Shown here: in pieces, positions 1 through 26,294 of the stretch
Position numbering within the stretch: the first letter of the stretch is position 1
Layout of the letters: every line of letters starts with the position of its first letter
Source: Phycisphaeraceae bacterium
GTDB taxonomy: Bacteria; Planctomycetota; Phycisphaerae; Phycisphaerales; Phycisphaeraceae
Reading direction: 5' to 3'
Assembly: GCA_963674705.1 (NCBI GenBank)
Contig: OY771506.1
Location: forward strand, 3,072,001-3,136,000
DNA length: 64,000 nt
Program-made: the position numbers and the translations under genes
The notes under the pieces: generated by a model
The model's database searches: none
What the model was told of the DNA's origin: nothing
Seen by the model: the letters and a program-made list of their open reading frames with translations, nothing else

Positions 1-142
1 TCTCGTGACGTCACGAAAATTGGGCGGGTCCGGGCAAGCGCCGGTCCTGGGTTGTTATTGGGCCAGCAAAATTGGCCGGCAGGAGAAAGACACACGCTGA
101 AGAACAGGTCCACCGAGGACGAGTTAGCGTCGGTCTACCTTT

Positions 143-153
143 ATTATACCACA
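143..153 (-). promoter_or_regulatory. Extended -10 promoter (TGnTATAAT) firing leftwards
   Basis: The minus strand reads TGTGGTATAAT; no good -35 is visible and the target gene would lie outside the window. Confidence 0.45.
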
Positions 154-269
154 AACAATTACCCCACTGTGCGCACGTTGTGACCGATGAATGAGCATGA
201 TTGACCCATCGGTGGCATGGCGAGGGGCATGCGATTCTCGTCGGGTAGATATGCAGGATTGTGGACAAG

Positions 270-567
270 CGGAAGCTTAAAGGAAGCTGAGCGGGAGGTG
301 AATCGGCCAACCTTCCGTAGAGAATATGCTTTATTTATAGTGATATATGTATATATACGGAAGCACGGAAGCTACTCGGAAGATATACATGTAGTCCGTT
401 TACTTGTGACATCTGACATCACATGGATGGCCAATATATATATCTGGGGAGTTTCTTGGAACCTGCTTCCGTGCTTCCGGCATCTTGCACTTGGCCCTAT
501 GTATATAAGCACTTAGCGCACGGAGGCAGTTCTCTCTGAGCATCCTCTCAGGTACCGGTCTGCTTCC
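270..567. repeat. Cluster of (C)GGAAG(C) motifs with a 15-bp inverted repeat and TA-rich tracts (iteron/ori-like)
   Basis: Motif copies at about 270, 282, 312(rc), 358, 366, 377, 465(rc), 473(rc) and 562(rc). CGGAAGCACGGAAGC at 358-372 is the exact reverse complement of 465-479. Confidence 0.55.
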
Positions 568-789
568 TGAGACTTGTATACGCCCTGTTGTTGCGCGCAC
601 AAGAGAACCCGTCACCAAGTTAGCTTTGTCACTTATGTCAAAGGGATTCAAACTTCTGGTACAATAAAGGTATGGCGGTATGACATGAGTCCGCACGATC
701 CATAGCGCGCAAGCGCAAACGCGGATCAACCGCCACATGCAAAACCCACAGCGTCCTGTGACCCAGCCTCTAACTGGCTTGATGGTTCT

Positions 790-1353
790 ATGCGCGCAGC
801 GAAGCAGGAGATATCTATGTACTCAACCCGTAACCGTCGGCCTGATCGGTTCCATCTGGTCCATCATTGCCTAGCCCTTTTGCGCGACCGAGGCTGGTTC
901 AGCGCAACACAACTCGCGAACATGTTGTATTACGGCTCGGGCAAACCCCACCAGGAACAACGTAAGCGCGTGCGCTGGATGCTGCAGCGTTACGTCGACG
1001 CGGGCATCATCGAAGAGCACGAAGCCGCCTGCAAGATCTACCGCCACCGTGACGTAACTGAAGACGACGTAAACAAGAACTTGCTACTCGAGTTTGAGAT
1101 ACACGCCTGTCGCCGTTGGTCGAAGTCAGACCAGATGTTTCTGCGATTGGTGGAGGACAGGCTGGATATATTGATACCGCCTGACGCCGACCCGCTGCGA
1201 TTCACGCCGCTGGGTAATCTGATGCCCCACTCGATGCTTGATCCGGACTGGGATGATTGGGGACGACCGGTAGAGAAGGGGCCGCCCAGCGCCCTGGCAT
1301 ATGTGCGAAATCCGGTCACAAATGTGCCGTTAGATAAAAAAGCCGTGTCGTAA
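790..1353 (+). CDS. Hypothetical protein, possible winged-helix DNA-binding protein
   Basis: 187-aa ORF (alternative ATG at 817 with an AGGAG RBS). The FSATQLANML...RVRWMLQRYVDAGII pattern resembles a wHTH. Confidence 0.55.
   Translation: MRAAKQEISMYSTRNRRPDRFHLVHHCLALLRDRGWFSATQLANMLYYGSGKPHQEQRKRVRWMLQRYVDAGIIEEHEAACKIYRHRDVTEDDVNKNLLLEFEIHACRRWSKSDQMFLRLVEDRLDILIPPDADPLRFTPLGNLMPHSMLDPDWDDWGRPVEKGPPSALAYVRNPVTNVPLDKKAVS
1277..1310 (+). repeat. 34-bp imperfect direct repeat, copy 1 (within the 3' end of ORF 790-1353)
   Basis: 29/34 identical to 4459-4492. Confidence 0.8.
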
Positions 1354-1475
1354 GCTGCGCCTCCTCCAAGATCATTATCCGATCTTTCGGCTAGGATATC
1401 ATACCGGGGAAGTTAGAGTCTGATTCATTTAGAAGATAAACAAATCCGGCAAGGTCGGGGTTTCGACCGTCTGCT

Positions 1476-2216
1476 ATGATGCCTGCGAAGGTAATCAACA
1501 TGCGGACGCCAATCATGGAACAGCGGCAACTCCAACCCGAGCGCATGGATGATCCTACACTGGATAGTAGCCTGCACCGCCAGGCTCTCCGAGGCCTGGC
1601 ACGGATTAATTGTTTTTCGCGCAGCGCCGCGATGATCTGGAATCCATTGCGTGCACAACTGGCCCTTCGCCACTGCAATGTTTCGGCTAAGCGTGTGCTA
1701 GACGTCGCCTGTGGTGGCGGTGATGTGACACTGGAGCTGCAGCGGCTTGCTGATCGCGATGATGTGAATGTCCGCGTCGATGGTTGCGACATCAGCCCCA
1801 TCGCCGTCCAGACTGCGGCCCAATTGGCTGATAAGCGCGGTACCCGCTCCACTTTCTTCAAACACGATGCGCTATCCGGATCGCTGCCGCAGGGCTATGA
1901 CGCGGTTGTCTGCAGCTTGTTCCTGCACCATCTAGACAACGACCAGATCGTTGATCTTCTCAACCGCATGGCTGAAGCCACAAACGTGATCGTGGTCAGC
2001 GATCTAGAACGCAGTCGCTTCGGCTATCTCGCGGCAAAAATCGGGACACATGTGCTTAGCCGATCTTCCGTCGTACATTACGACGGACCCGTTTCGGTGC
2101 AGGCGGCGCTGACCGTCGATGAGGCGCACCGCCTGGCGTTCGCGGCAGGACTCGATGGTGTTTCTGTAGACCCCATATTCCCATGCCGCTGGCTCTTGAC
2201 GTGGAGTCGGCCATGA
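1476..2216 (+). CDS. SAM-dependent methyltransferase (type III PKS-associated)
   Basis: VLDVACGGG motif I, CSLFLHH, and N-terminal ERMDDP. The true start may be 1500 or 1515. Confidence 0.9.
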   Translation: MMPAKVINMRTPIMEQRQLQPERMDDPTLDSSLHRQALRGLARINCFSRSAAMIWNPLRAQLALRHCNVSAKRVLDVACGGGDVTLELQRLADRDDVNVRVDGCDISPIAVQTAAQLADKRGTRSTFFKHDALSGSLPQGYDAVVCSLFLHHLDNDQIVDLLNRMAEATNVIVVSDLERSRFGYLAAKIGTHVLSRSSVVHYDGPVSVQAALTVDEAHRLAFAAGLDGVSVDPIFPCRWLLTWSRP

Positions 2217-3343
2217 TCGGTGACTTCGACGCGGTGGTGATCGGGGCAGGACCGGCTGGTTCGGTCTCAGCTTATACGATGGCCCGTCGTGGCTCGCGTG
2301 TCCTGCTCGTTGACAAGGCGTCGTTCCCGCGCGAGAAGGTCTGTGGCTGTTGTCTTAATGCACGGTCACTGGCGATACTGGATCGGCTGGGGCTTGGCGA
2401 TCTGCCGTCCAGGCTTGGGGCTCGTACAATCAAGCGTTTACTTCTGAGCTATGGATCTCGCCACGCCACGATACCGCTTTCCGGCAGCGTCAGTCTCTCG
2501 AGGCTTGCACTGGATCAGGCGCTGATCGAACGTGCCCAAGAAGCTGGCGTCAAGTTCTTAGACAAGACTTGCGCCGCAGTAGGCCCTGCAAGCACCAAGT
2601 CACGCAGCGTCATGCTTCGTTCGAGTGAAGTGGGGTCCGTGAACACGAACGCGAGAGTTGTCCTGTTGGCCGACGGACTTACAGGTACGGCCTTGAAGAG
2701 CGACACGTCGCGCCTGAACCAGGTCGCATCTTGGTCGCGTATGGGCGCGGGGGTAGTCATTCGGCATGCCCCCGATGCTTACGCGCCGGGCAGTGTCTAC
2801 ATGGCATGCAGTCAAGATGGTTATGTTGGGTTGGTTCGTCTGGAGGATGATCGGCTGGACATCGCGGCGGCTATGGATGTGGGCTACTTGCGGGAGGCAG
2901 GGGGCCCTGGTCCGGGTGTGGTGTCGCTTTTGAAAAAGACGGGAATGCCGATGATCTCCGGCCTAGAGGAACAGCGGTGGCGCGGCACAGGCCTATTGAC
3001 GCGGTCCAGACTTCATGTGTATGACGAGCGCCTACTCGTGCTAGGCGACGCAGCGGGTTACGTCGAGCCGTTTACAGGTGAGGGGATTGCTTGGGCCCTC
3101 ACTGGTGCCGAGGCGGTGGTCGACATAGCGATAGAAGGTATTAACTCTTGGCATCCGACATTGGGTAAGGCATGGGAAAAACGGTACCGGAAGCTGGTCC
3201 ACCGTCGCCAGACCCGCTGCCGGCTTGTGGCGTTTTGGTTGCGTCACCCGACGCTGAGCGCACCTGCTGTCGCCTTGCTTGGCCGTTCACCGCAACTGGC
3301 TAAACCATTCATCCGCACGCTGACGCAGATCGCATCCGCTTAA
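2213..3343 (+). CDS. FAD-dependent oxidoreductase (geranylgeranyl reductase-like)
   Basis: VIGAGPAG Rossmann motif, FPREKVCG, and GDAAGYVEPFTGEGI. ATGA overlap with the upstream stop. Confidence 0.92.
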   Translation: MIGDFDAVVIGAGPAGSVSAYTMARRGSRVLLVDKASFPREKVCGCCLNARSLAILDRLGLGDLPSRLGARTIKRLLLSYGSRHATIPLSGSVSLSRLALDQALIERAQEAGVKFLDKTCAAVGPASTKSRSVMLRSSEVGSVNTNARVVLLADGLTGTALKSDTSRLNQVASWSRMGAGVVIRHAPDAYAPGSVYMACSQDGYVGLVRLEDDRLDIAAAMDVGYLREAGGPGPGVVSLLKKTGMPMISGLEEQRWRGTGLLTRSRLHVYDERLLVLGDAAGYVEPFTGEGIAWALTGAEAVVDIAIEGINSWHPTLGKAWEKRYRKLVHRRQTRCRLVAFWLRHPTLSAPAVALLGRSPQLAKPFIRTLTQIASA

Positions 3344-3359
3344 CACTCTGGAGTTGCTC

Positions 3360-4460
3360 ATGCAGGCAGACATACTAGGCATCGCGACCGCTCGCCCCAA
3401 AGGAGTTTTTAGCCAGGAGCAGGCCTTGGCTATGGCTTGTAACCGAAGCACCCAAGACTCCCGCCAGTCGGACTTGCTTAAGCGCATGTACACCAATAGC
3501 ACGATCCGCCAACGCGCCAGTGTATTGGTTGAAGATGTCGACAACCCGCTTGAGTCACTGGAACGGTACTACCCCGTCCCACGCGACGGCAACGGGCACG
3601 GCCCGCCGGTCTCCCAGCGGATGCAGCGTTACCAGCGCGACGCGGGGTCACTCGCCTGTCAGGCGTCAAGCCTGGCGCTTGCGTCGGCCGGCATCGAGCC
3701 CGACACAGTAACGCAAGTCGTGGCTGTCTCATGCACAGGTTTTGTCTCACCCGGTATCGACACCGCGCTGATCCGCGGGCTGGGCCTGCTTTCCACCACT
3801 GGCCGGACGATGATCGGCTTCATGGGTTGTCATGGGGCGATTAACGGCATGCGGGTCGCCTCAGCGTTGGCAACCGCTTCACCGGAGGCATGTGTGCTGC
3901 TATGCGCGATTGAATTGTGCACACTGCACTTTCAATACGGCTGGCACCCTAGTCGGGCGCTTGCCAATGGGCTGTTCGCCGACGGCGCCGCTTCGGCAGT
4001 GATTATCCCGACGAATTACAGCAACCGTGCATCTGATACATGGCGAATCCATGCAACCGCATCGTGTTTGCTCCCGGATACCGAAACAGACATGGGCTGG
4101 TCAATCGGTGATCACGGGTTTGAGATGACACTGAGCCACCGTGTACCCGACCGGATTCGTGAACACCTGCAGGGCTGGTTAGCCGGGTGGTTGATGGAAC
4201 ACAACCTCGCTATTGGCGACGTAGCGCATTGGGTGATTCATCCCGGAGGTCCCAAGATCATCGATGCCGTCGAGTCTGCGCTAGGTCTGTCTCCGCACGA
4301 CACGGTTACCTCACGCGAGGTCTTAGCCGAGTGTGGCAACATGTCATCTCCCACAGTGCTTTTTATCCTGCAACGAATAGCGAAAACGCAAGCGGAGTGT
4401 CCCTGCGTGATGCTGGCGTTCGGGCCGGGCCTGGTCGTAGAGGCGGCACTGCTTTTATAG
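3360..4460 (+). CDS. Type III polyketide synthase (chalcone synthase-like)
   Basis: Catalytic triad contexts GFMGCHG (Cys), HPGGPK (His) and GNMSS (Asn); also LFADGA and FGPGL. GGAG RBS before the ATG at 3360. Confidence 0.96.
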   Translation: MQADILGIATARPKGVFSQEQALAMACNRSTQDSRQSDLLKRMYTNSTIRQRASVLVEDVDNPLESLERYYPVPRDGNGHGPPVSQRMQRYQRDAGSLACQASSLALASAGIEPDTVTQVVAVSCTGFVSPGIDTALIRGLGLLSTTGRTMIGFMGCHGAINGMRVASALATASPEACVLLCAIELCTLHFQYGWHPSRALANGLFADGAASAVIIPTNYSNRASDTWRIHATASCLLPDTETDMGWSIGDHGFEMTLSHRVPDRIREHLQGWLAGWLMEHNLAIGDVAHWVIHPGGPKIIDAVESALGLSPHDTVTSREVLAECGNMSSPTVLFILQRIAKTQAECPCVMLAFGPGLVVEAALLL

Positions 4461-4492
4461 GGCCCCCCCAGCGCCCTGGCGTACGTGCGGAA
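4459..4492 (+). repeat. 34-bp imperfect direct repeat, copy 2 (encodes GPPSALAYVRK)
   Basis: 29/34 identical to 1277-1310; all five differences are synonymous third-position changes. Confidence 0.8.
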
Positions 4493-4585
4493 ACGTCAGT
4501 AAGAAGACTTCGATTTATTGTCTGGCATCATCATCTACGAGCCCCCACGTCATGCCTTTCAATGCGTAAGGGCGGTTCTAAAATG

Positions 4586-4594
4586 TGTTATAAT
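4586..4594 (+). promoter_or_regulatory. Extended -10 promoter upstream of the DUF5131 gene
   Basis: TGTTATAAT. Confidence 0.4.
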
Positions 4595-4860
4595 GAAGTT
4601 ATGAGAGTGTGACTTTGGTCATGTCTTCGGGGGCCTCAAGCCGGGTAGACAAAATTCTAATCGTTATGAGGTCTTTCGTGCTGTGACTAAGCACTTTAGG
4701 CAGAGTGTGATCGTATGCGCGGATCCCGAGTCAATGCATGAATGAGAACAGAGTATTTTAGAAATCGCCGCCGATTGTTTCGGCCGCTTAAGGAGAGTCG
4801 GTATGACATCAAGAATCGAAACCTTCAACTATGGAACCTTCATATGGAGTAATGGATACG

Positions 4861-5691
4861 ATGGGCATTAAAACTAAAATTCAGTGGACGGACTCGACCG
4901 TGAACCCGACGATGGGCTGTGACGGTTGTGAACTGTGGTGTAATCAGAGACGCAGTTGCTACGCCGGCAAGCTTCATGATCGCTGGGGGAAAACAAATAA
5001 GGGTCTCTCTGATACCTTCGATCAACTGGCTTGTTATCCAGGCCGCATGGAAAAGGCAGCCAGATGGTCGAGTTTGGAAGGACGCTTGAGAGAAGGCGAG
5101 CCGTGGAAGATTAAACTGCCGCGGATGATCTTCGTGTCGGATATGTCGGATGCTCTTTCTAAAGATGTTTCGTTCGAGTATCTGAAAGAGGAGGTGATTG
5201 ATGTGGCCGCCTCAGCAATGGGGCAGCAGCATAACTGGCAATGGCTGACCAAGCGGCCGGAACGTATGGCGGAGTTTGCAGTGTGGCTCGCCGACATGAA
5301 TGAGTCCTGGCCCTCAAACTTGTGGGCGGGCACGAGCCTGACGACGAACGGGACACGATCACGGATCGCTCCTCTGTTGAAGGTGCCGGCCGAAGTCCGT
5401 TTCCTGTCGGTTGAGCCTCAGATCGAAGACATTGATTTGACCGGCTATCTTGGTGGGATCTACTGGGTGATTCAAGGCGGCGAGTCAGGTAACGACGCGA
5501 GACCCTTTGAGGTAGAGTGGGCAGATAAGATGCGGCGGCAGTGCGAGGATGCTGATGTGCCGTATTTTCTAAAACAATTAGGAGCGTCCGCCTATGAGCA
5601 CGGTGAACCGATCGAGCTCAAAGACGGCCACGGCGGCGACTGGATCGAATGGGACGAGCGGCTGCGTGTGCGGCAGTTCCCTCGATTCTGA
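4861..5691 (+). CDS. DUF5131 / phage Gp37-Gp68 family protein
   Basis: TKIQWTDSTVNPTMGC...C...CYA, IFVSDMSD, LTKRP, RFLSVEP, WVIQGGESG and FLKQLG motifs. The ORF is open from 4831. Confidence 0.9.
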   Translation: MGIKTKIQWTDSTVNPTMGCDGCELWCNQRRSCYAGKLHDRWGKTNKGLSDTFDQLACYPGRMEKAARWSSLEGRLREGEPWKIKLPRMIFVSDMSDALSKDVSFEYLKEEVIDVAASAMGQQHNWQWLTKRPERMAEFAVWLADMNESWPSNLWAGTSLTTNGTRSRIAPLLKVPAEVRFLSVEPQIEDIDLTGYLGGIYWVIQGGESGNDARPFEVEWADKMRRQCEDADVPYFLKQLGASAYEHGEPIELKDGHGGDWIEWDERLRVRQFPRF

Positions 5692-5698
5692 TCATCGA

Positions 5699-5720
5699 AT
5701 TTTCGATACGTATCGAAAAT
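5699..5720. repeat. Perfect 22-bp palindrome
   Basis: ATTTTCGATAC|GTATCGAAAAT. Confidence 0.85.
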
Positions 5721-5733
5721 GTTCATATGCAAG

Positions 5734-5762
5734 GAGGCGGGCCGTATGGTCCGCCTCTTTCT
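5734..5762 (+). terminator. Intrinsic terminator of the DUF5131 gene
   Basis: GAGGCGGGCC-GTAT-GGTCCGCCTC followed by TTTCT. Confidence 0.6.
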
Positions 5763-5979
5763 ATCAAATATATTTAGCCATGTGCTATTTTGACCTCACT
5801 CTCAGCAAGAGCTGCAGCAACATAGTTGAAGGTTCGAAGAGGGGCTGGGTAGTTGGTAAGTTTCACGCAAACTGAATCCGAAAAAATATAATCGCACGAT
5901 ATGTCACACGCAGCTAGTTCCATTTGGGCTCTTGATCGTAATAACCTTTCGATAATCCAAGTCACCACCCGCTGAGCCG

Positions 5980-5993
5980 TCTATGAGCAAGCC
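5980..5993 (-). mobile_element. IS110/IS1111-type right-end sub-terminal repeat
   Basis: The minus strand reads TTGACAACGGCTTGCTCATAGA (an outward -35 plus the repeat). The 14-mer TCTATGAGCAAGCC recurs at 24563 ahead of an IS110 N-terminal fragment. Confidence 0.7.
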
Positions 5994-6182
5994 GTTGTCA
6001 AGCGGGCCTAATCTGTGGGCTGGATCCAACCATCTATCCGGCATCGATCTCATGGGTCGTGCCACTAGTCTGTATACGTAAACCCGCCTCATTCACCACA
6101 GCAAGGTCCAGATTGGCCTTACGGCCCAGCTCGAGGTCGGGTGTGATCTGCCCAGCAGACCCCTGTTCGGATCTATCCACCA
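5994..6182 (-). ncRNA. Candidate IS1111-type bridge/seek RNA region
   Basis: About 190 nt of non-coding sequence between the transposase stop and the right-end repeat. It contains GCCGGATAGATGGT, resembling the end junction ATAGACGGT, and a GGCC-GTAA-GGCC hairpin. Confidence 0.5.
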
Positions 6183-6620
6183 CTACGTCGCCCAACGCCA
6201 AGTCTCGCCGCTGCGCAGCATCGCCAGCATGCAACGAAGCAGCTTGTGTGCGGTTGCCACCACGGCGATCTTCTTGCGTTCCGGCTTCCCGTTCATGACA
6301 CGATTGAAGTAGTCACGCATCGCCGAGCACTTCCTGATGATTTGCCAAGTCGCTTCGACCAACAGCTTCCGGACTGTTGAGGGCCCCTGCCGAGTGATGT
6401 GACCCAGGCGATTGACCCCGGCGCTGGCGTCCTGCGAGGGCACCAACCCGAAGTAGGCGCCGATTCGATTGATGCACGCAAAACGTTTCGGGTCGTCGAT
6501 GTATGCCAGCACCGCCTCCGCGATACGCACACCCACCCCCGGGATCGTCGATAGTAACGCAATGCCGGGGTGGTGTTGCGCCAACCGGTCCAGGCGATCC
6601 GTCACGGTAGCCACGGTCAC
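6183..6620 (-). pseudogene. IS110-family transposase, C-terminal fragment
   Basis: TIPGVG, AYFGLVPSQDASAG, GHITRQGPSTVRKLLVEA and KKIAVVATAHKL motifs. The N-terminal DEDD domain is absent here. Confidence 0.88.
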
Positions 6621-6754
6621 GAGAGAGCCGCAGGCGTTGTAAGGCGTATCGAGCTTGTCACGCTTGGCGTTTTCCACGGCGCGGTACCAGTCTTTACCGC
6701 TGCGCAGGTGCATCAATTGATCGACGGACCAGCGGTCGTTGGGGCGGGCGCCGC

Positions 6755-7300
6755 GATCAGCACGTGATAACGAACCAGACCACCGAGCGTCCACACTTCC
6801 ACCGTGAAGAAGTCGGCTGCCGCGAGGTGTTCCCAGTGCGCCTTGAGGAAGGTCTCCCAGCTTCCGCGTTTGCTCCGCTCCGGCGACGGTTCGATCCCGT
6901 GCGCCTTGAGAATCCGGCCGATCGTTGTGTCGCTGACCCGGTGGCCCAGATTCAATAGTGCGCCTTCGATACGGTCGTAGCCCCAATCCTTGTTCTCCGT
7001 CGCCATGCGCACCAACAAGGCCCGGATCTCTTTCATCACACCTGGACGGCCTGGGCCGCGGTTCTTGCTGCCATCGTACTTCCTGGCGATCAAGCGTCGG
7101 TGCCAACGCAGCAGTGTGTCGGGCGTAACCAGCGTGCCCAGTTCTCGCAATACCTTGCGTCCCAACACCTTAGCTTTGACCGCAAGCCGCCGCCGCTGGT
7201 CATCGGTAAAGCGCAGGCGCTTCTCACCAAACTGCTCGCGAAGAACCCGGTTCTCTTCTTTAAGGTAGTCAATCACAGACTGCTGCTGGCGATTGATCCA
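6755..7300 (-). pseudogene. Truncated rve-type transposase/integrase (IS3/IS481-like), HTH region
   Basis: [20 protein letters not shown]...[11 protein letters not shown]...[10 protein letters not shown]...AADFFTVEV, broken before the DDE core is complete. Confidence 0.8.
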
Positions 7301-7430
7301 GACCTCTTCGATAAGGTCCAGAAACTCCTTAAGCTCAACGGTAGAACCGGCGGTGCGGAGGACCGCAACAAGTACGGGGCTATCCTGCGCGGGCTGCTGC
7401 GGTGCAAGACCTGCGGGACCGCGATGAACC
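7292..7430 (+). pseudogene. Large serine recombinase fragment (end of recombinase domain and start of Zn-ribbon)
   Basis: [13 protein letters not shown]...[21 protein letters not shown]. Confidence 0.65.
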
Positions 7431-7588: not shown

Positions 7589-9211
7589 TTATTCATCCGC
7601 AAGCCGGACCAATTCCGCTTCTACGGAGTCAAACATGTAACCGATCATCAGCGCCCGGCGTGACGGCCGGATCATGCCGGAATAGACGCGCTCGTACTCC
7701 TCGCGCAATGCCCGCATCTGTTCAAGAATCCGCGACGCCTGATCACGGTGTGCCTGCGGGTCAAAGCCATCTGTCCGGCTCAGCAGAATGAGCTGCGACG
7801 CCTCGGCCCGGTTAGTCAGGTTACGCGCGGCGAGTTCCCACAATTCCAGTCGGTATTCACCTTTCGAGGTAACCCGCATGAGCGATCTGATCTGATCTAG
7901 GCTTCTGGCGTAAGCCCGCCGCCGTGCACGGGCGGTCTCGATATGTTCATCGAACCCACCTTCTGCAATGATAGAGGCCAGTGTCTTCTCGACGTGGTCC
8001 GCGGGCACGGGCAGGCAAGCCTTGCCGATCCCAAGCGATTGCGTGTGGGTGAAAAGGCAAGGTTCAGACAAGCCCTCCACCGCTTCCCAGAAGCGGTCAT
8101 CTTCTAAGCCGTAGGCGCACTTCACGTACCGGTCTCGGAACTCGGCCATAGTAGACTCGGGGTTCTGTGACAGGAAGCCAACCGCGGCGATGTGGGCGTG
8201 CTGTAACTCCCAAGGGTGAAGGTGGACCGACCAGCTTGTCAGCACCGTGCCGCACAAGGCGGGTGTCTTCAGCCCCTTCGCAGCCGAGTCCCATGTATTG
8301 TGCAACTGGCGTTTGTGTCTGGGCGAAAAGACATTGTCGCCGTCGCAACTTGATCCGGGGCAGGTGACAACCTTAAAGCCCTTGTCGGCCAGGAAGTCGG
8401 CTGTATAGAACGTTTCCGGGTCGACGCCGGGCGCGTCTCCGTTTGGGAACAAATATTTGCCAAACAGATCAAGGTCTTTTGGTGTAAACTCGTTCCTGTT
8501 TCGCAAGCCCCGCTTGTCACCCCAGATATATACCCTGCCGTTGCCGCGCCAGACGTCATACATCCAGTCAAACAGCATCACATCACGCGATAGCTCATCG
8601 ATCGCACCGTTGTGGTGCAGCGCCATGTCCGCCCAGATGATGGGTGTTGCGCCGCGTTCGATCAGTGGCTCAGATATCGTGTTGACATGCTGAATGAATA
8701 TCTGTGAGACACTCAGGTCGTGCTTGTTCCTTGCACTCTGTTGCACATGGTCAAGTCGGCGGGCCTCGTCGCAGCCGATGTGGAAATAACGTACTTCGCC
8801 GAAAAGATCGAGGTACTCCGCTATCCAGTCGTGCAACAGCAGTACGACGGCCGGGTGCAGCGGGTTGTATTGCGTCGTGTCGTCAGGATGGGCGCGGAGG
8901 CCGGCGTACTTTTCGTGCCGCAGGACGTACTCCGCATGGCCGAGCGTCTGCAGCAGCGGAATGTTGTCGAGGCCTAATCCTTTGGCATGCTCGAGCAGCT
9001 TGCGGAATTCATCCTTGGTCAGCGCATCGGGCTGGTGTGCCTCCGGTATAGTCTGCCACTCGATGCCGCCTTCCAGCTCCCAGACGACCGTGTTGTAGCC
9101 CATCTCGGACAATGTTGTCAGCCAGGCCTCAAGATAGTCTGCACGGTACTGCGCCATATTCATGTCGATATGGAAACCGATGATACGCCTTTCAATCGTC
9201 TTTAGAACCAT
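7589..9211 (-). CDS. GH20-family hexosaminidase (HexD-like)
   Basis: IPLLQTLGHAEY, HIGCDEA catalytic motif, and IIWADM. Confidence 0.85.
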   Translation of the reverse strand: MVLKTIERRIIGFHIDMNMAQYRADYLEAWLTTLSEMGYNTVVWELEGGIEWQTIPEAHQPDALTKDEFRKLLEHAKGLGLDNIPLLQTLGHAEYVLRHEKYAGLRAHPDDTTQYNPLHPAVVLLLHDWIAEYLDLFGEVRYFHIGCDEARRLDHVQQSARNKHDLSVSQIFIQHVNTISEPLIERGATPIIWADMALHHNGAIDELSRDVMLFDWMYDVWRGNGRVYIWGDKRGLRNRNEFTPKDLDLFGKYLFPNGDAPGVDPETFYTADFLADKGFKVVTCPGSSCDGDNVFSPRHKRQLHNTWDSAAKGLKTPALCGTVLTSWSVHLHPWELQHAHIAAVGFLSQNPESTMAEFRDRYVKCAYGLEDDRFWEAVEGLSEPCLFTHTQSLGIGKACLPVPADHVEKTLASIIAEGGFDEHIETARARRRAYARSLDQIRSLMRVTSKGEYRLELWELAARNLTNRAEASQLILLSRTDGFDPQAHRDQASRILEQMRALREEYERVYSGMIRPSRRALMIGYMFDSVEAELVRLADE

Positions 9212-9667
9212 CAGTATCGACTCCGAATAAGCGTCGCTGGACCCGAAACCCGCCGGTCATAATGCCAAGGTGGCGCATCATAAACAGGCGTTTTCTGGCA
9301 TTAGCATAGCAAATCCCCCAATCACTCGACATACATGAGTCCCTGGTGTTGTTTAGCGTAAATCGTGGTCAGCCGCTGCAAATCGTTGCCGATGATAGCC
9401 CCGCAGCTTCAATGGGATTATCACGCGTCAAAGCGAAGTTATCGTGGCGGGTCTGAACGGGTAGAAGATGCTGATGACTTACGCGTATCGCCAGTCCGGT
9501 TCATCGAACCTGCTATCGACGGTGATGTTAGCGGTCGCATGCCGGCAGGCATAGGCGGGCTCCGCAGATGGTTGCCGTGTCACCGGCGCGTGGCGACAGG
9601 CAGTCAACGCGAGGGTACACGTTGCGACGGTGGACAGGATGAGGACTTTACCCAACATGAAACGGTC

Positions 9668-11857
9668 CTATGTCGTCGGTGGTATGGGCGTTTGGGTGGA
9701 CTGGCCAGCGCCGTTGGTAGGGGGCTCGGACAGCGGTGTATCGTCGTCGACCGGTCGGGTGACAATGCCGGTGTCGTTGAAATCGCGTTTGAGTGAACCG
9801 AGCGTCATGAAGAGCCTGCGTGTATCGATGATCCCGCCGATCAGGAACCAGATGATCGTGCCTATGCCCAGGACCAGCATCAGGCCCAATCGCCATTCCC
9901 AGTACATCACCCAGTCGTCCTCGGACATATGGCCCCAAAGGCCGTTACGGGCGCCGATGAACTGCACCGTGCCGACGATGAACACGATGAACCAGATGAT
10001 GGTCCAGGCGAGCTTGCCATAGTAGATGAACTTATCTCCGAGGCTGAACTCTCCGGAGGGCAGGATGGCGCGTAGGCCGGAGACAGGCTTGACCACTTCG
10101 CCGTCGTGATCGACCCTGATGGCGTAGCGACCGCGGTGCAACATGCGCTCCATGTTGAACGCCGGCCGCCTGGCAACCAGCCATGCCAGCAGCGAACAGG
10201 TCACGTACCCCACGATCGACAGGCACATGGCGAAGAAGTTGACCCACTGGCCATCCAGCGGGAACTCATCAGGGCCGACCTTCCAGTTGATCCCCCAGAC
10301 GCGCGTCGAGACGCCTTCAAGCCCTGTCCTAACCAGGTCCAGCAGCCAAGGGGCGTCCGTAACCATCCAGGGATACAGTGAGTCCTTCCATAATAGACGC
10401 AAAATCATCCCGCTGACTGCGACGACCCACCCGGTGGTCAGGGCGACCCACGCCCCGCTGGTCGAACCACGCTTCCAGTAGAGCCCGCCAATGATCAGCG
10501 AGCCCGCACCGCCGATGTAGATCGCGCCGGTGATGGCGAAGAACATGAAGATCAGGTCATTCTGCTCATACAGCAGGCTGAAGAAGAAGATGAAGACGGC
10601 TACAAAGAAGATCGAGAACCGCAACATCCGCATGTGTTGTTTGGGCGTGAAGGGCTTCTTGCGGAACGGCAGGATCACGTCCTGAATGAACATGGAGCCC
10701 CAAGAGTGCAGGTAGGTATCGTGCGTGGCGGTGTTGGCCGCCAACATGGTCGCGCACAGAAGCCCGATCATCCCGACCGGCAGTGCCTTGGACAGTACGA
10801 CAGGGACGGTCATCTGCTCGCGGATCTGCGGGTTCTCGATCCCGTCAAGCACACCCATCGCGTTGGCAACGACCTGCTCGTACCCGCTGTGGTGCATGAT
10901 GACGAAAGCCCCGATCGGCAGGAACATGGCCACGACGGTGAACACCAGCCCCCGCCACTCACCGAGGATCCCGGCCATCTTCGCCTCATGCGCCGTCCTG
11001 GCCGAGGCGTTGTAGCCCTGCGATCCCTGCCACGCCTTCCAACCGTAGACATAAGTGAAGGCGCCGATCAGGAAGAAGAAGATGTTGAATCCCTCGACCT
11101 TGGAGGTCTGGAACGGCTGAATCATCGAGGCGTCCTTGGGCGCTTCTCTGAGCGTGTCTATGATCGTCGACCAGTCGAACATCCAGAAGATCGCGCCCAG
11201 AATGACGATGAACACGATATTGGTGAAGACGCCCTGTATGAAGTCCGTGACCATAATGGCGATCTGACCACCGATGAACACGAAGAACAGCGCGATCCCC
11301 AGCATCACGACCATGACGCCCGCGTAGACCAGATCGATGTCGCGCCCCAGGATGTTCACGGGGTAGTGCGGGAACCCGCAGAAGTAGATCATGAACCGCG
11401 CGCCTACAGCGGGGAAGATCCCGAAGTTGATGATGCCCGCGAGCCAGCCGAGGATGCCGGCGTAGACCCGGATGCCCTTGCTGTAGCGCACCTCGAAAAA
11501 CTGCGCCATCGTCATCACCCGCGTTTCACGATATCGATAGATCACCCACCCCGACAGCGCAATGATCAATGCCAACGGCGTCATGATGAGGTGCCACCAG
11601 TCGGCAGTGAGGCCCGCCTTGTAGTACATCTCGAAGAAAGCGACGATACTGATCGACCCCAGCCCGGCGGTCCCTTGGGAGATGCACAACAGGTAACGCC
11701 CGGCGCAGCGATTGGCCGCCAGGAAGTCCGCGATGCTCTGGATGCACTTCTTCGTCGAAATCGCCGCCGCGACGATCCCCACCAGCAGGCCCAGGACGAT
11801 GCACCAGTCGATCCAGTGCATGTTTGAAGCGAATACGGCCAAGCTCGGGGTCGGCAT
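9668..11857 (-). CDS. Sodium:solute symporter (SSS family)
   Basis: Many TM helices, DFLAANR, TMAQFFEVRYS, GGQIAIMVTDFIQ and GGLYWKR motifs. Confidence 0.9.
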   Translation of the reverse strand: MPTPSLAVFASNMHWIDWCIVLGLLVGIVAAAISTKKCIQSIADFLAANRCAGRYLLCISQGTAGLGSISIVAFFEMYYKAGLTADWWHLIMTPLALIIALSGWVIYRYRETRVMTMAQFFEVRYSKGIRVYAGILGWLAGIINFGIFPAVGARFMIYFCGFPHYPVNILGRDIDLVYAGVMVVMLGIALFFVFIGGQIAIMVTDFIQGVFTNIVFIVILGAIFWMFDWSTIIDTLREAPKDASMIQPFQTSKVEGFNIFFFLIGAFTYVYGWKAWQGSQGYNASARTAHEAKMAGILGEWRGLVFTVVAMFLPIGAFVIMHHSGYEQVVANAMGVLDGIENPQIREQMTVPVVLSKALPVGMIGLLCATMLAANTATHDTYLHSWGSMFIQDVILPFRKKPFTPKQHMRMLRFSIFFVAVFIFFFSLLYEQNDLIFMFFAITGAIYIGGAGSLIIGGLYWKRGSTSGAWVALTTGWVVAVSGMILRLLWKDSLYPWMVTDAPWLLDLVRTGLEGVSTRVWGINWKVGPDEFPLDGQWVNFFAMCLSIVGYVTCSLLAWLVARRPAFNMERMLHRGRYAIRVDHDGEVVKPVSGLRAILPSGEFSLGDKFIYYGKLAWTIIWFIVFIVGTVQFIGARNGLWGHMSEDDWVMYWEWRLGLMLVLGIGTIIWFLIGGIIDTRRLFMTLGSLKRDFNDTGIVTRPVDDDTPLSEPPTNGAGQSTQTPIPPTT

Positions 11858-11918
11858 GCTGGTTGGATTCCTTCCTGGCGGCTATGCAGATAAGGATGAC
11901 CGGATGCGACCGATACGT

Positions 11919-13931
11919 TCAATCGGCGGCGTCGGAGTGCGTGTGACTCACGGTTCTGTCGGGGCTGGCCATGATCTGATGCTGCATGGCCCGATCCGGA
12001 TCTCGTCCATCCTGTGCAAAGAGTTTGGCCAGCCATAGGTGCGCCAGTTTGTAGCCCGGCGCCATCGACACGCAGGTCTCCAGTGCCTGGATCGCCTGCT
12101 CGGTCTTGCCGGTTTCCGCTAGTGCGACACCGAGGTTGTAATGAGCTCTAGGGAACTGGTGCGTCAGCCCGACCGCACGCAATGCGTAGTCCACCGCCTC
12201 ATCGTAGTGTTTTTTCACGATCGAAACACGGGCCAGCCCGTTGTATGCGACCGAGCTTTCGTCATCATTTCCCAGCAGCTTTTTATACGCACGCTCCGCA
12301 TCGTCCCACTTCGCAAGCTGGCCGTAGGCCTGTCCCAAGGCCCCGAGCAACGCCTCCATATCGGGCGCAATCGTCTCCGCCCGTTTGAGGTATTCAATCG
12401 CCTCCTCGGGCTTTTCCTGACGAAGCTTCACCTGCCCAAGCGTGGCTAGCAGGACGGCGTTAGTGGGGAATGTTTCAAGCAGCTCAAGGAGCAGCGGCTC
12501 ACACAGGTCCGTCTGGCCTGTCAGCAGGTAGCAGCGCGCCAGTTGGAATTTGTATGCGACGGCGTCCTCCTCGTCCTGGACCAGCAGCTCCTGCCAAATG
12601 GGAATCGCCTGGTCTGCTCGCTGGCTATCCGTCAGAGCCTTGGCAAGGTTAATCTTCTGGTCGAACATGGCGTGTTGAACGCTTTTCTGGACATCGTCGC
12701 TCGGTGCATCGATATAACCGAGTTCCACCAAGTGACGGATCGCTTCGGCTGAGGCGACCGGGTCTTCCCTACAGTCCTCCCCGTGCATCCCGTCATCGCC
12801 TTCGACCTGGTCCCAACTGATGATGTGCTCGGCCCGTATCTCCTTGTCGAAGATCTCCAGCCATGGTCGTCCGTCCATATCCGCACCGATAGGCAGGCCG
12901 AACAGCGACAGAATGGTCGGCGTGACGTCCAGCACCGTAGCGCCGTAGACGTGGGTGTCTTGCTTGATCCCGGGCCCCTTGGCGCAGACCACACCGAACG
13001 GCCGGTGCCAGCTCTCGGGGTCTTTGAACCCGTCGGAGTCACTTCGGCCCTTGCCGCTGTGGAAACCGTGGTCGGAAACCAAGATGACGGTGGTATCGTC
13101 CCCAGCGTAGCTTAACATCGCCTCGAGCATCATGTCGTGGTATCGGTAACAGCCGTTCATCACATCCTTGTACAGATCGGCGTCACGCTCGCTGACGCCT
13201 TCTATAGCGGGTGGATGGAAAGGCATGAAGTAGTGCCCCATCAGGTCGATCGCGTCGTAATAGACAGCCATGAAGTCCCACGGCTCGTTGTTCATCAGCC
13301 AGCACGCGGCGGCGTGAACCGTGCTGGCGCGTGCCAGCAACCCGGCGAATGTACCGAGTCGATCGTCCTTCGCCGTATCAATCTCCGCGGCGCGGGGGAT
13401 GAAAGGCAGGATGGCCATGGCGTCGAGCTGACGAGGGTCGACCCGCAGTTTCAGCAGGTCACCCGCCAGGCGTTCCGGGTGGAACATGCCGTCGCTCGAT
13501 GAGGGTGCTTGCTGATCCGGGCCCAGACGCGTCACGTAGCGTTCGGTCACGACCGCGCCGTTGATCGGCTCGGCGGGGTGGCTGGCGTACCATGTGACGA
13601 CGTTGGACTTCATCCCGCTCTGAGAAAGGATGTTCCACAGGGCCTTGGTCTTGCGGCTGGTGCTGCTGACCGGGCGGATGCCGCTGCCGTCAGGCAACGG
13701 TTCGGTGAAGCCGTAGATCCCGTGTTTGTCCGCACGTTTGCCCGTGGCGATCGAGTTCCAGAGCATCGGCGACAGGATCGGGCGGATCGTGGCGAGTTTG
13801 CCACTGACCCCATCCTTGATCATCTGTTCGAGTGTCGGCATCAGGCCCTGTTCGATCAACGGCCTGATCATGACCCAGTCGGCGGCGTCCCAGCCGATCA
13901 GAAGGACCTTCTTGGCTAACCGTTGTGTCAT
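11919..13931 (-). CDS. Alkaline phosphatase/phosphodiesterase superfamily protein with C-terminal TPRs
   Basis: IGWDAADW, LSPMLWNSIATG, DAIDLMGH and VSDHGF motifs, followed by a TPR array. Confidence 0.88.
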   Translation of the reverse strand: MTQRLAKKVLLIGWDAADWVMIRPLIEQGLMPTLEQMIKDGVSGKLATIRPILSPMLWNSIATGKRADKHGIYGFTEPLPDGSGIRPVSSTSRKTKALWNILSQSGMKSNVVTWYASHPAEPINGAVVTERYVTRLGPDQQAPSSSDGMFHPERLAGDLLKLRVDPRQLDAMAILPFIPRAAEIDTAKDDRLGTFAGLLARASTVHAAACWLMNNEPWDFMAVYYDAIDLMGHYFMPFHPPAIEGVSERDADLYKDVMNGCYRYHDMMLEAMLSYAGDDTTVILVSDHGFHSGKGRSDSDGFKDPESWHRPFGVVCAKGPGIKQDTHVYGATVLDVTPTILSLFGLPIGADMDGRPWLEIFDKEIRAEHIISWDQVEGDDGMHGEDCREDPVASAEAIRHLVELGYIDAPSDDVQKSVQHAMFDQKINLAKALTDSQRADQAIPIWQELLVQDEEDAVAYKFQLARCYLLTGQTDLCEPLLLELLETFPTNAVLLATLGQVKLRQEKPEEAIEYLKRAETIAPDMEALLGALGQAYGQLAKWDDAERAYKKLLGNDDESSVAYNGLARVSIVKKHYDEAVDYALRAVGLTHQFPRAHYNLGVALAETGKTEQAIQALETCVSMAPGYKLAHLWLAKLFAQDGRDPDRAMQHQIMASPDRTVSHTHSDAAD

Positions 13932-14038
13932 CTTGATCCCGATTTGGATTCTTCGGTATTAGTAAGTAAAGGGCCAGGCCCACGGTTACGCAAGCCCAGC
14001 CCGAGTGTTGAAACCGTCACAACAGCATCCGTGCCGGG

Positions 14039-14707
14039 TTACGCCGAGCGGCGGCGCAGGCCGATGGCGCCGAGGCCGGCAGCGAGCAGGCCCAGCGACG
14101 CCGGTTCGGGAACCGCGCCGGCAACGATGTCGGTGTCCACAGCGCTCTCGTAGGCGTAGTCGTAGGCGATAAGGTGCGAATTGTACTGGCTCGTGCCGGT
14201 GATTTTCAGCCGGATCCAGGCCCAGTGCAAACCCCCACCCGCGTCTTCCAGTTGAATAGCCGCGTACTGCGGGTCGGTCAGGTTGCGGAAGTTGGTATAG
14301 GAGACATGTAGTCTGTCGAGGGCATTGGATAACGGCGACACGTTCGGGTTGGATGATCCGATGATGTCACCCGCACCGAACGACCGGACATAAGCGTTGT
14401 TGCCCTTGGAGATGTTGGTCATGGTAGTCGTGCCGTTTATCCCAAAGCACCTCATTCGCGCGAACCACCCAGGGCTCGAACCCGGCGCGTACGCGTCGGT
14501 GTGTTGGATCAGCAGGTCATCGGTACCGTCACCATTCATGTCCAAGTAAAACCCAGGATCACCTGTGACCTGGTCGACATCGGGGACAATGTCACCATAG
14601 ATGATCGCCGCCTGCGCGCCTTGAGCGGCGCCGAAAGCACCCAATCCTGCCGCGGCCGAGTAGGCCATCAGTCGCTTAACACTATCCTGCTTCTCTCTGG
14701 TCTCCAT
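14039..14707 (-). CDS. PEP-CTERM surface protein (paralog 2, no dockerin-like module)
   Basis: Signal-like leader ending AQA, C-terminal VPEPASLGLLAAGLGAIGLRRR. Start taken at the METREKQ ATG, which has a GGGAG RBS. Confidence 0.88.
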   Translation of the reverse strand: METREKQDSVKRLMAYSAAAGLGAFGAAQGAQAAIIYGDIVPDVDQVTGDPGFYLDMNGDGTDDLLIQHTDAYAPGSSPGWFARMRCFGINGTTTMTNISKGNNAYVRSFGAGDIIGSSNPNVSPLSNALDRLHVSYTNFRNLTDPQYAAIQLEDAGGGLHWAWIRLKITGTSQYNSHLIAYDYAYESAVDTDIVAGAVPEPASLGLLAAGLGAIGLRRRSA

Positions 14708-14872
14708 CTGCTTTCTCCCATCAATAAGGTGTGAAAATAGTATTCGAACAAACACAATGGACAACATACATCGAAGTTAAACTGTTAGGTTCAAGACGTG
14801 CGTCCTCCTCTCTAACAACCCCCGTTTCTTGTGTGAATCACATGCTGTGTAGCGGGGTATTAGGCCGGCCGT

Positions 14873-14898
14873 AACCGCCCCCGGAGGTCGGGGCGGTT
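14873..14898 (-). terminator. Hairpin downstream of PEP-CTERM paralog 1
   Basis: AACCGCCCC...GGGGCGGTT stem; the U-tract is weak. Confidence 0.4.
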
Positions 14899-14918
14899 GC
14901 AGGCCGGATCGAGTTTGA

Positions 14919-15812
14919 TCACATACGCCGGCGACGCTTACATGCCATGGCGCCGAGACCCACGGCGAGCAGGCCCAGCGTGGCCGGTTCGGGAACGGCG
15001 GCGACGGGCGGCGTGCCGTTGTTCCAGTTGTTCAGCACAATGTCCAGGTCGGATAGACCCACAAATCCATCACCCGTGGGATCGCCTTCGCTCCATTCGC
15101 CCGGAGTTACGTTCTGGTTCCAGTTGGTCAGAACGATATCCAGGTCGTCCAAGCCGACGAAGCCGTCGCCGTTGAGGTCGCCGTCTATCGAGGTGACACC
15201 CATGTCACCGGCAAGAATCCCGGTCACGTTGTACAGGTCGGTCTCGTAGGCGTAGTCGTAGGTCGTCAAGAGAGAATTAGTTGAGCTGGTGCCGGTCACT
15301 TTCATTCGGATCCAAGCCCAGTGCAGGCCCCCGCCCGAATCCGCCAAACGGATCGCCGCGTATTGCGGATCGGTCAGGTTACGGAAGTTGGTATAGGCGA
15401 CATGCACCCGGCTGAAAGGGCTGATGCACAACTGCACGTCTGGATTGGAGTTGCTGATGTCATCACCCGCACCGAACGAACGGACATAATAGAGGTTGCC
15501 CTTGGAGGCGTTGGTCGCCACGCGCGTGTTGCCTAACGGGTAGCACCTGAACCGCTGGTACCAACCGGAGCTCGCGGCCGGCGCGTAGTTGTCGACATGT
15601 ACGATCCTCAAGTCATCGATACCGTCACTATTCATATCCAGTAAAAACTCGGGATCATTTTCGGCCTGGATGATATCGGGGTTGATGTCGCCATAAATGA
15701 CTGACGCCTGAGCGCCTTGTGCGGCGCCGAAAGCACCCAGCCCGGCCGCGGCCGAGTAAGCGAGAAGTCTTTCCAGCGTATCCTGAGTCGATTCATTCTT
15801 GTAATTTGACAT
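14919..15812 (-). CDS. PEP-CTERM surface protein with dockerin-like module (paralog 1)
   Basis: Collinear with 14039-14707, plus two GD.GDGFVGL.DLDIVL.NWN repeats and VPEPATLGLL...KRRR. Confidence 0.9.
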   Translation of the reverse strand: MSNYKNESTQDTLERLLAYSAAAGLGAFGAAQGAQASVIYGDINPDIIQAENDPEFLLDMNSDGIDDLRIVHVDNYAPAASSGWYQRFRCYPLGNTRVATNASKGNLYYVRSFGAGDDISNSNPDVQLCISPFSRVHVAYTNFRNLTDPQYAAIRLADSGGGLHWAWIRMKVTGTSSTNSLLTTYDYAYETDLYNVTGILAGDMGVTSIDGDLNGDGFVGLDDLDIVLTNWNQNVTPGEWSEGDPTGDGFVGLSDLDIVLNNWNNGTPPVAAVPEPATLGLLAVGLGAMACKRRRRM

Positions 15813-15890
15813 ACTTTTCTCCTCAATGCAAAAAGGTAAGACGTGCGGTATTCACATAAAAAAACCAAAGATTCACAATGAATTGGTTTA

Positions 15891-17498
15891 TCAGATTGTG
15901 TAACTCGAGCCTGTTAGTTGATCAAGGCAATTAACACCGCAAACAAATGACGGCGCGTTGGGTTGTTTGGGTTGACTGGCCGGCGGATAATCTTGGGCGA
16001 GTAATTCAGACCTGACCTGGAAGTCATGGTAGTCGCGCATCTTGCGAGGTGACCAGAGGACTTCACTCAGAGCCAGTAACCTCGGCATAACCTGACGGAT
16101 CAGTTGCTCATATGTCTTGATGCATTCTGTCCAAACCGGTGCTTCCCCGCCCAGCACCAGGTCCGCCGCCACCGTCTCCAGGCCCTCGGGGACCGGCTCA
16201 AAGCCATACACTTTTTCGACCGGCAGCAGCGGCATCCAGTCGGGCTTACCAAGTCGGCTCTCTTCGCAACAGGGGTAGTCCATGTAAACATACTCATGGA
16301 ATGAGTTGATCGTCTGCCGTCCCAAACTCGCAGCCATTTCGCTCTGGCCCTCTAGCCATCCCTGAATGATCTGGCCGTCCGGCATCCCCGCCTTCTTGAG
16401 GTTGTCACCCCAGCCGATCGTTCGGACCTTTAGTTGTTCATGGACATAGTTAGTGATCTGCGAAGCAAACCAGAACTCCAGTTCGTCTTCACTCTTAAGT
16501 CCCAACTCATGCATACGTTTTTTACATGACGGGCACTGACTCCAGAAACCAGTCGGCCGTTCGTCTCCTCCGAGGTGGATGTACTGCGGTTCAAACACCT
16601 CCGCGACTTCGGCCAGGACATCCTTAAGAAAAGTGAATACCTCGTCACGTCCGGCACAGTACAAACGACGACCGCCGTCACGTGTATAGGCATTCAACCC
16701 GCCGGCCGCATCAACGGTTATGGATTTGCCGGAGCAAGACAGGCTCGGGATTGCATATAATGCCGAGTTGCAGTGGCCGGGCATATCGATCTCGGGGATC
16801 ACGATGATGTGACGATCATTCGCGTAAGCGACAATGTCACGGACCTGTTGTTGCGAATAGAAACCACCGTAGCGACTGTCGCCCTCACCACGCCAGGCGC
16901 CCACGGACGTCAGTCTTGGATACTTCCGGATCTCCATCCGCCAGGCTTGATCGTCAACGATGTGCCAGTGGAAGCGGTTGAATTTCAATGCAGCGATTCG
17001 GTCGATGATGCGTTTGATTTCCGAAACACTTTGCATATGCCTGGCGGAATCAAGCATAAAGCCGCGCCATGAGAACCTGGGCCGGTCATTGATGTGAACG
17101 CATGGCAGGTACCGAGATCCGCCATGATTGGCGTCACCCGTAGCGAGTTGGAACAAGGTCTGTACGCCGTAGAACGCACCGGCTGGACGCCGTGCCGTGA
17201 TGCTGACACAGTCCTCATTCACAGTCAGTTGATAGCCCTCGTCGCCAATATCACTCAGGCCGGGGTCCTGTATAAGCCGTATCGATCCGTCACTTTTCGA
17301 TCCCAGCGGGTTACCTGATCTGATGCACACATCGGCACCCGACTCGGAGTCGATCCAGTCGGCGAGATATCGTCCGAGCCAACGATACCGTTCGACATCA
17401 TCGACGATCTCCAGGTGTATCACCCTCACGGACGCCAGGGCGAACTGGCCTGGACAGCGCTTGACTTCCACGGGTTTGGGGATCACAGCAAGCCGCAT
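15891..17498 (-). CDS. GH20 beta-N-acetylhexosaminidase
   Basis: DRPRFSWRGFMLDSARH, DDQAWR, PEIDMPGH, HLGGDE and WTE motifs. Confidence 0.95.
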   Translation of the reverse strand: MRLAVIPKPVEVKRCPGQFALASVRVIHLEIVDDVERYRWLGRYLADWIDSESGADVCIRSGNPLGSKSDGSIRLIQDPGLSDIGDEGYQLTVNEDCVSITARRPAGAFYGVQTLFQLATGDANHGGSRYLPCVHINDRPRFSWRGFMLDSARHMQSVSEIKRIIDRIAALKFNRFHWHIVDDQAWRMEIRKYPRLTSVGAWRGEGDSRYGGFYSQQQVRDIVAYANDRHIIVIPEIDMPGHCNSALYAIPSLSCSGKSITVDAAGGLNAYTRDGGRRLYCAGRDEVFTFLKDVLAEVAEVFEPQYIHLGGDERPTGFWSQCPSCKKRMHELGLKSEDELEFWFASQITNYVHEQLKVRTIGWGDNLKKAGMPDGQIIQGWLEGQSEMAASLGRQTINSFHEYVYMDYPCCEESRLGKPDWMPLLPVEKVYGFEPVPEGLETVAADLVLGGEAPVWTECIKTYEQLIRQVMPRLLALSEVLWSPRKMRDYHDFQVRSELLAQDYPPASQPKQPNAPSFVCGVNCLDQLTGSSYTI

Positions 17499-17504
17499 GA
17501 AACA

Positions 17505-18641: not shown

Positions 18642-18759
18642 GATCTAATTATTAAAGCAGGCAAAATTACAGTTCACAAAATGTTCCATCGGTCTCTAAC
18701 GTATGAGCAACTGGATGATGTTCATATCACCCGCCATCGCGTAGATCGCACGGCGGTTG

Positions 18760-19584: not shown

Positions 19585-19686
19585 TTCGGGACACTCCCTG
19601 GTTAATCCTGCCTAGTTCCGTATGTAACCTGACTGACATGGGCTGATATGGTCGGTTCACTCATAGTGCCAAGCCATCTGCATACA

Positions 19687-19774: not shown

Positions 19775-19781
19775 ACACGCA

Positions 19782-25958: not shown

Positions 25959-26294
25959 CAAGCTTGATCCGTCGTCTGATGAGCCTTCATCATAACCTGG
26001 TGGCATGTAGCCTAGCCGACACTGATTACAGGTGGCGAGTACTCGTACACCCAAGTGCAGAATGTCGTAGTAGATAGCACGGCTTAAGGCCTTGCATGTC
26101 CGGCGTTCGCTGACGCTGTCGTGCACCAAACGACGTACCTTCTCCATTGATTAGAGGGCTGAGGACGCCTGCTAATTGCCTGCATAAGTCGAAAAGTGTA
26201 AAAAATAGCAGGCAATTCTGATATAACATAAGCATTTAATATAAAGGTAATTATGGCAATAAAATAATGTTGAACAAGGCCTGTCACGGGCATT

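Follow-up and report, generated by a model that had tools for sequence, protein, structure and literature searches.

In the 64,000-nucleotide stretch of a Phycisphaeraceae genome analyzed here (the window), a three-gene type III polyketide synthase (PKS) operon lies between two diverged copies of the last codons of one gene, ORF790. We lean toward the explanation that two sister mobile elements recombined once, leaving the operon between the end of the island's own ORF790 and the orphaned end of a diverged allele. Several parts of this picture are plain: there is an enclosing integrative island with an attachment (att) core and an empty site in a relative, the repeated segment is a motif of the ORF790 family, a PKS-free layout exists, and the two copies differ silently to the extent that alleles of this gene do. 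What is new is modest, namely a mapped mobile vehicle for the operon, an unnamed regulator-like family at the border of core and cargo, and a junction that preserves both parents. For now the evidence points to a single, well-preserved scar of recombination, the island being ordinary in other respects.

Two allele ends around the operon

Copy 1 of the repeat (1277..1310, plus strand, found with pattern and genome-wide motif scans) lies within ORF790, and copy 2 (4459..4502, plus strand) consists of what appear to be the orphaned last codons of a second allele of the family, reading GPPSALAYVR-KRQ-stop. Positions 1277-1310 and 4459-4492 are identical at 29 of 34 sites; all five differences are silent third-position changes (GGG/GGC, CCG/CCC, GCA/GCG, TAT/TAC, CGA/CGG), and both copies translate as GPPSALAYVR. 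Copy 2 begins inside the PKS stop codon TAG (4458-4460), in frame, and continues as KRQ-TAA at 4491-4502. These features had been noticed in the first-pass annotation of this DNA and direct comparison bears them out. A degenerate pattern of the repeat matched the window twice and none of 100 shuffles, and the 5.54-Mb genome holds the repeat at these two places only, the next-best sites having 11 mismatches of 34 to copy 1 and 10 to copy 2. With 28 of 90 possible single changes being silent, five of five has a probability of about 0.003, so the repeat is due neither to chance nor to a plain target-site duplication. A contig from run X1 covers 1-6824 with zero differences, although X1 is possibly the source sample and the agreement argues against a mis-join only.

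Three other identities for the repeat were considered and set aside. A GAPDH-like near match with 11 mismatches was taken as chance, and an opposite-strand reading, FRTYARALGGP, is also common to both copies, with the family alignment and the fold favoring the plus strand. Integron attC sites end in RYYYAAC and GTTRRRY, and such an identity was rejected by inspection alone, these ends being absent.

The extent of divergence between the copies is informative. They differ silently at 5 of 10 codons, compared with 53 of 128 (41%) over the whole gene between alleles, so the difference is that expected of allele divergence rather than of synonymous recoding, as it had earlier been described, or of a conserved DNA site. 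Among copy 1, copy 2 and the allele at locus L014, the pairwise silent changes over the motif number 5, 4 and 4, which suggests that copy 2 is the end of a different functional allele, recently orphaned, and not a decayed duplicate of copy 1. Apart from two whole genes, it is the sole remnant of the family in the island. Two alleles in one structure call for recombination between sister elements.

L014, the sole close homolog for which DNA is at hand, is 76% identical to ORF790 and lies on a PKS-free contig of 2.25 kb. Upstream, its positions 40-247 align with window 600..816 (plus strand), a likely promoter or leader of the family gene. At its 3′ end the gene carries a 14-residue tail, as do ORF790 and the homolog P0001, and not KRQ-stop. 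Counting from the motif, L014 +30 to +75 matches the 14-codon tail and stop after copy 1 (1309..1353, plus strand; score 30, 0 of 1000 shuffles as good) and not the DNA after copy 2 (807 of 1000 as good), whereas L014 +75 to +200 matches in register the DNA after copy 2 (4536..4660, plus strand; score 52 against a shuffle mean of 4.0, sd 8.6, 0 of 1000) and not that after copy 1 (502 of 1000). The register of L014 and the window holds within 1 bp over 170 bp. An extended −10-like TGnTATAAT at 4586-4594 (plus strand) was read from the sequence, the promoter scan not having listed it; its hexamer and a 14-of-15 block lie at distances from the motif that are equal within 1 bp in the two. An unanchored local test gave 7/300. 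In G004, a genome of the same genus, a DUF5131 homolog is preceded by a gene whose counterpart (31%, E 5e-30) is the next gene in L014.

This alignment shows what we take to be the uninterrupted layout, i.e. gene, tail, promoter-like region and downstream module, with 4536..4660 as the native downstream region of the ORF790-family gene. Because L014 matches first the tail of copy 1 and then the downstream DNA of copy 2, the operon appears to have been inserted at the ORF790 3′ end, as the first-pass annotation had proposed, and the PKS is absent from 10 of 10 genomes of the same genus. That annotation had also taken KRQ-stop for an alternative C-terminus of ORF790 and expected an empty site ending in it. 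Here the homologs disagree: KRQ-stop occurs in none of the 4 close and none of the 31 fetched distant homologs, and the single contig that bears on an empty site, L014, has downstream DNA as after copy 2 with a tail of the copy 1 type. In the 143 other genomes of the bacterial family nothing matched the region after copy 2, and six viral matches to a pattern drawn from it covered a short core only and were treated as chance.

A proposed recombination between sister elements and its alternatives

The exchange we favor would have begun with a donor element in which an ORF790-type 3′ end was followed by the PKS operon. A crossover anchored by homology in or just before the motif, together with a microhomology join (AG/AGGG) at the PKS stop, would have placed this piece in the recipient, displacing the recipient's last codons and its promoter-DUF5131 module to the far side. 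This would have been recent, the displaced motif having no amino-acid change, and the operon would now travel as cargo whenever the island integrase moves the whole 31 kb. Cargo loading would then have been caught in the act, at a junction in which two alleles of the gene bordering core and cargo have each left an end. The process resembles homology-facilitated illegitimate recombination, which the available text of PMC6382021 describes as joining foreign DNA by a homologous anchor and very short microhomology, with joins of 3-10 bp.

Several observations weigh against this explanation. The hosts named in that part of PMC6382021 are naturally competent Streptococcus, Acinetobacter, Pseudomonas and Bacillus, and the present host is not among them. 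A random join would seldom coincide exactly both with the PKS stop and with the start of the most conserved motif in the family, as this one does. The 45 nt after copy 2 resemble neither the copy 1 tail nor the L014 tail (404 and 807 of 1000 shuffles as good), so that an extra step is needed. The +75 to +200 bin was set after the alignment had been seen and the layout rests on one 2.25-kb contig. Finally, ORF790 and P0001 are sisters (body 86% identical, support 100/99) and yet their tails share 1 of 14 residues, while those of P0001 and P0002 share 5 of 14; numbers are small, but the discordance fits a tail swap at the motif as a site-specific mechanism would predict.

Such a mechanism, which we regard as unlikely, would involve a recombinase-less circle of 3.2 kb, made of the motif, a replacement tail and the PKS operon, that integrated within the 14-bp block identical in both copies; copies 1 and 2 would be attL and attR and KRQ-stop the displaced end. 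A generalization, that the family's last codons are a recombination site at the core/cargo border where recombinase-free cargo is swapped in trans and the gene is repaired by its replacement tail, is doubtful to the same degree. The layout is that of the replacement-sequence pattern known from elements in the available part of PMC10111431, and a circle would yield the same picture as a one-off exchange. The shared 14-bp block, the precision of the join at stop codon and motif start, the tail of ORF790 discordant with that of its sister and the existence of a PKS-free allele with the copy 2 downstream DNA would all be accounted for. The empty-site hybrid that it predicts has 4 differences from L014, compared with 5, 5 and 6, and so is nearer by one change; KRQ-like x-R tails are also found in the family, with ERA-stop in L008 and ER in P0129 and P0132.

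Reuse of the site is where this mechanism falters. KRQ-stop itself is missing from the close homologs and the fetched distant ones (of 43 in total), as noted above. There was no second orphan copy in the 143 other genomes of the family, where the only two other motif matches among all 144 are both in G007 and at the ends of ORF790-family genes; viral and genome collections gave 0 motif matches, own or very near genomes possibly having been left out of them; and the motif was absent at 29 of 29 other PKS loci fetched from the family. These negatives for orphan copies and reuse are weak inasmuch as the ORF790 family is thinly sampled. Synonymous sites in the motif are conserved no more than the gene background, and no candidate recombinase for the motif was found, the island integrase sitting at a different core, which the 34-mer does not resemble. 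No excision joint appeared in the four runs examined, of five listed, which consist of contigs that drop rare variants and circles; runs X3, X4 and X5 moreover cover the stretch in patches only and give no evidence of absence.

The 3.2-kb unit does have a duplicated gene end around the insert and an intact target gene. No recombinase is encoded within it, and reuse of the site by this or other cargo in independent genomes was not found; having one defining feature and failing on reuse, it is not classed as an att-type cassette. In the available text of PMC10111431, icd prophages, fis PICIs (phage-inducible chromosomal islands) and helper-embedded PICIs likewise show a duplicated gene end and an intact target, which can be a mobile-element gene, but those elements have their own integrase and one site reused in many genomes, whereas the window insert lacks a recombinase and is known from this one case. 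The first-pass annotation had read the two copies as the att pair of a cassette that may be mobilised in trans, and had suggested looking for the 34-mer beside other cargo and for an excised circle. Neither search lent support. It is the 31-kb island that has a proven att pair, the target is itself a mobile-element gene, and the results for orphan copies, PKS loci and joints are those just given. Its observation that no recombinase is present holds for the 3.2 kb but not for the island, which has a tyrosine integrase 3.0-4.5 kb upstream of the window start. If the motif were nonetheless a reusable site, it would represent a new route by which small biosynthetic clusters move without a recombinase of their own.

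It is also improbable that copy 2 was left behind when a tandem paralog, or the core of a second element, was lost by deletion after the operon had landed between two family genes, a course of events that would need no crossover between alleles. Tandem paralogs do exist in the tRNA-Leu(GAG) island of the same genome, collapsed elements do leave 3′ halves behind (as at L060), and erosion would be bounded by the PKS stop and by the promoter. Those paralogs, however, share only 41-47% identity with ORF790 and do not have the motif in its exact form, whereas the closeness of copy 2 is that of a 76% allele. Non-silent changes would be expected from slow erosion, yet 0 of the 5 are of that kind, and the island yielded no further remnant of a second core.

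Poorer still are the prospects of selection having kept copy 2, either as a DNA site, for example an operator for the winged helix-turn-helix (wHTH) protein at a fixed distance from the promoter, or as a read-through peptide of the PKS. The remnant is trimmed to the motif, motif and −10-like box are 128 bp apart here and 127 bp apart in L014 despite a diverged spacer, two of the changes exchange palindromes (CATATG/CGTACG), and motif and PKS stop share one reading frame. That frame would arise in one of three cases by chance, the extension is absent from all 120 PKS proteins listed, and variation among the five DNA copies of the motif fits protein constraint, with synonymous sites changing at the gene-wide rate. 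Chance similarity or an assembly artefact may be dismissed, no support having been found for either: 100 shuffles gave 0 matches, the next-best genome sites have 10-11 mismatches, the downstream DNA matches L014 independently, and one contig spans both copies unchanged.

The ORF790 family

ORF790 (817..1353, plus strand) encodes 178 aa comprising a predicted N-terminal winged-helix domain and, at the C-terminus, GPPSALAYVR with its 14-aa tail. The start had been placed at 790, but the ATG at 817 is most likely on comparison with homologs, which have that length. No Pfam or PHROG family matched. The structural model (pLDDT 80.9) has its best fold matches among MarR/ArsR-type wHTH proteins at E 0.03-0.1, none reaching E<=0.001, and fold and Atlas searches together yield weak wHTH leads, so that the protein can be said to resemble winged-helix regulators only weakly.

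There are four close homologs at 67-86% identity and 43 matches to the family among representatives at 50% identity, 31 of which were fetched; P0139 and P0166, among the 43, were rejected as repetitive false matches. The family is present in 5 of the 143 other genomes of the bacterial family, often multiple times, with 4 matches in the source genome (G000) and 9 in G007. In a sample of the class, a homolog of ORF790 was found in its own genome only (1 of 401). Candidate contigs gave no ORF790 homolog locus, viral (0 of 141) or genomic (0 of 117), and a metagenome scan gave 2 loci. One of these, L015 (E 1e-5 over 41 residues), fell on an unrelated gene and was dropped as spurious. ORF790 is a mobile-element gene of the island and not a host gene.

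The motif is retained in 4 of 4 close homologs, one with a change of the Gly, and takes the forms PPSALAYVR, PPNALAYVR, SPSALSYVR or PRVLGYL in distant members. Both codons and residues vary among those members, and GPPSALAYVR is a protein motif of the family. Relative to L014, 4 of 10 motif codons carry silent changes against the 53 of 128 of the whole gene, a synonymous-site comparison that gives no extra conservation of the motif at the DNA level above the gene background, and variation among the five DNA copies is all compatible with protein constraint.

The 3′ halves of family genes are fused to unrelated genes in P0143, P0145, P0155 and P0164/L060. For the partner in P0143, Pfam gave a weak transposase helix-turn-helix (HTH) alone; labels for most of the other partners are presumptive. 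With several family genes per genome, tandems and fused 3′ halves, stranded ends are common. At L060 (G008:C35:53104-56295) a collapsed element consists of a tRNA-like gene and, after it, an N-terminal stub, presumably integrase-like, which is joined in frame to the 3′-terminal 67 codons of a family gene (P0164). In G007, family genes at L052:9743-10485 and L053:8817-9578 have several frameshifts with the C-terminal motif intact; these may be assembly errors, since other genes of G007 look frameshifted too. Run X5, a marine metatranscriptome library, contains a contig related to ORF790 with 14 differences over 171 bases (window 795-965), as well as pieces like the oxidoreductase and the PKS, which does not imply that these pieces are linked or transcribed.

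The operon and the enclosing island

On the plus strand and in this order, the operon comprises an S-adenosylmethionine (SAM) methyltransferase like mtr/hidA (1476..2216; PF13649, E 2e-15), a flavin adenine dinucleotide (FAD)-dependent oxidoreductase like fdo/hidB (2183..3343; PF01494, E 1.7e-13) and a full-length type III PKS (3360..4460; PF00195/PF02797) whose stop codon abuts copy 2. The closest PKS homolog is 62% identical, and the PKS occurs in 67 of 143 genomes of the family. The C-terminal length is the same in 103 of the 120 PKS proteins listed, the window PKS included, and none of the 120 has an extension like copy 2. The three genes and their order are those of the hidABC type, and the operon adds a member to the mtr-fdo-T3PKS cluster already known from Planctomycetota. 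The available text of PMC10896814 describes the same three genes in the same order for Planctomycetota mtr-fdo-t3pks and cyanobacterial hidABC, and from membership of this family long-chain alkylresorcinols are the predicted product. According to it, such operons hold 58 of 96 T3PKS genes of planctomycetes, with alkylresorcinol products and flanks that are not conserved, and it poses horizontal transfer as a question. The operon in the window differs from those described there in riding as cargo on a mapped integrative island, whose empty site is seen in a close relative. This island is a concrete vehicle for the transfer which that part of the paper queries.

The island, 30,922 bp long and integrated in tRNA-Leu(CAG), encodes both an integrase and a primase. 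These two genes, the former a tyrosine integrase (PF00589) and the latter of the D5/P4 type (D5_N/DUF5906; PHROG primase), are found together with attL and an ORF790 paralog in the 4.7 kb that precede the window (G000 3067287-3071926). The attR, a 14-bp core from the tRNA-Leu(CAG) 3′ end, is at 26280..26293 (plus strand). G004, whose left flank is 96% identical, has the empty site, in which the tRNA is joined directly to what lies after window 26293. Both the att pair so proven and the recombinase are therefore those of the 31-kb island, of which the PKS operon is cargo.

The enclosing element has a tyrosine integrase by a tRNA, the tRNA 3′ core at the far end, an empty site in a relative, and a primase as replication module together with metabolic cargo. 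In this it works like a cargo-carrying tycheposon. The available text of bioRxiv 10.1101/2020.12.28.424599 describes for these the tyrosine integrase at a tRNA 3′ end, primase module, metabolic cargo and remnants of older elements; a further likeness is that no packaging gene was found among the island open reading frames examined. The likeness is one of layout, the present element differing from the tycheposons of that text in host group, in its size of 31 kb and in the unnamed wHTH-like family at its core/cargo border.

Downstream of copy 2 the module contains a DUF5131 gene (4831..5691, plus strand; PF07505, E 1e-55). Between it and a GH20 gene, window 5980-7304 holds two interleaved broken insertion sequence (IS) remnants, an IS110-type Transposase_20 and an HTH_32 transposase. 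Window 7589-20800 contains carbohydrate-use cargo including GH20, with DNA homologs of 67-79% identity elsewhere in G000 and in G004. Other cargo genes are presumably a symporter-like gene, a sulfatase/phosphodiesterase-like TPR protein, PEP-CTERM-like proteins and a ROK-like regulator.

Outside the window, tRNA-Leu(GAG) is the site of a second element (G000:C1:3559751-3564671; L005 and L007). Its genes include one that is integrase-like, one that is HTH/Rep-like and a tandem pair of ORF790 paralogs (G000 3563577 and 3564174), beyond which comes other cargo; no far end could be located. Elsewhere in the same genome, an array of 30 tRNA genes on one strand occupies about 12.4 kb at G000:C1:622407-634804.

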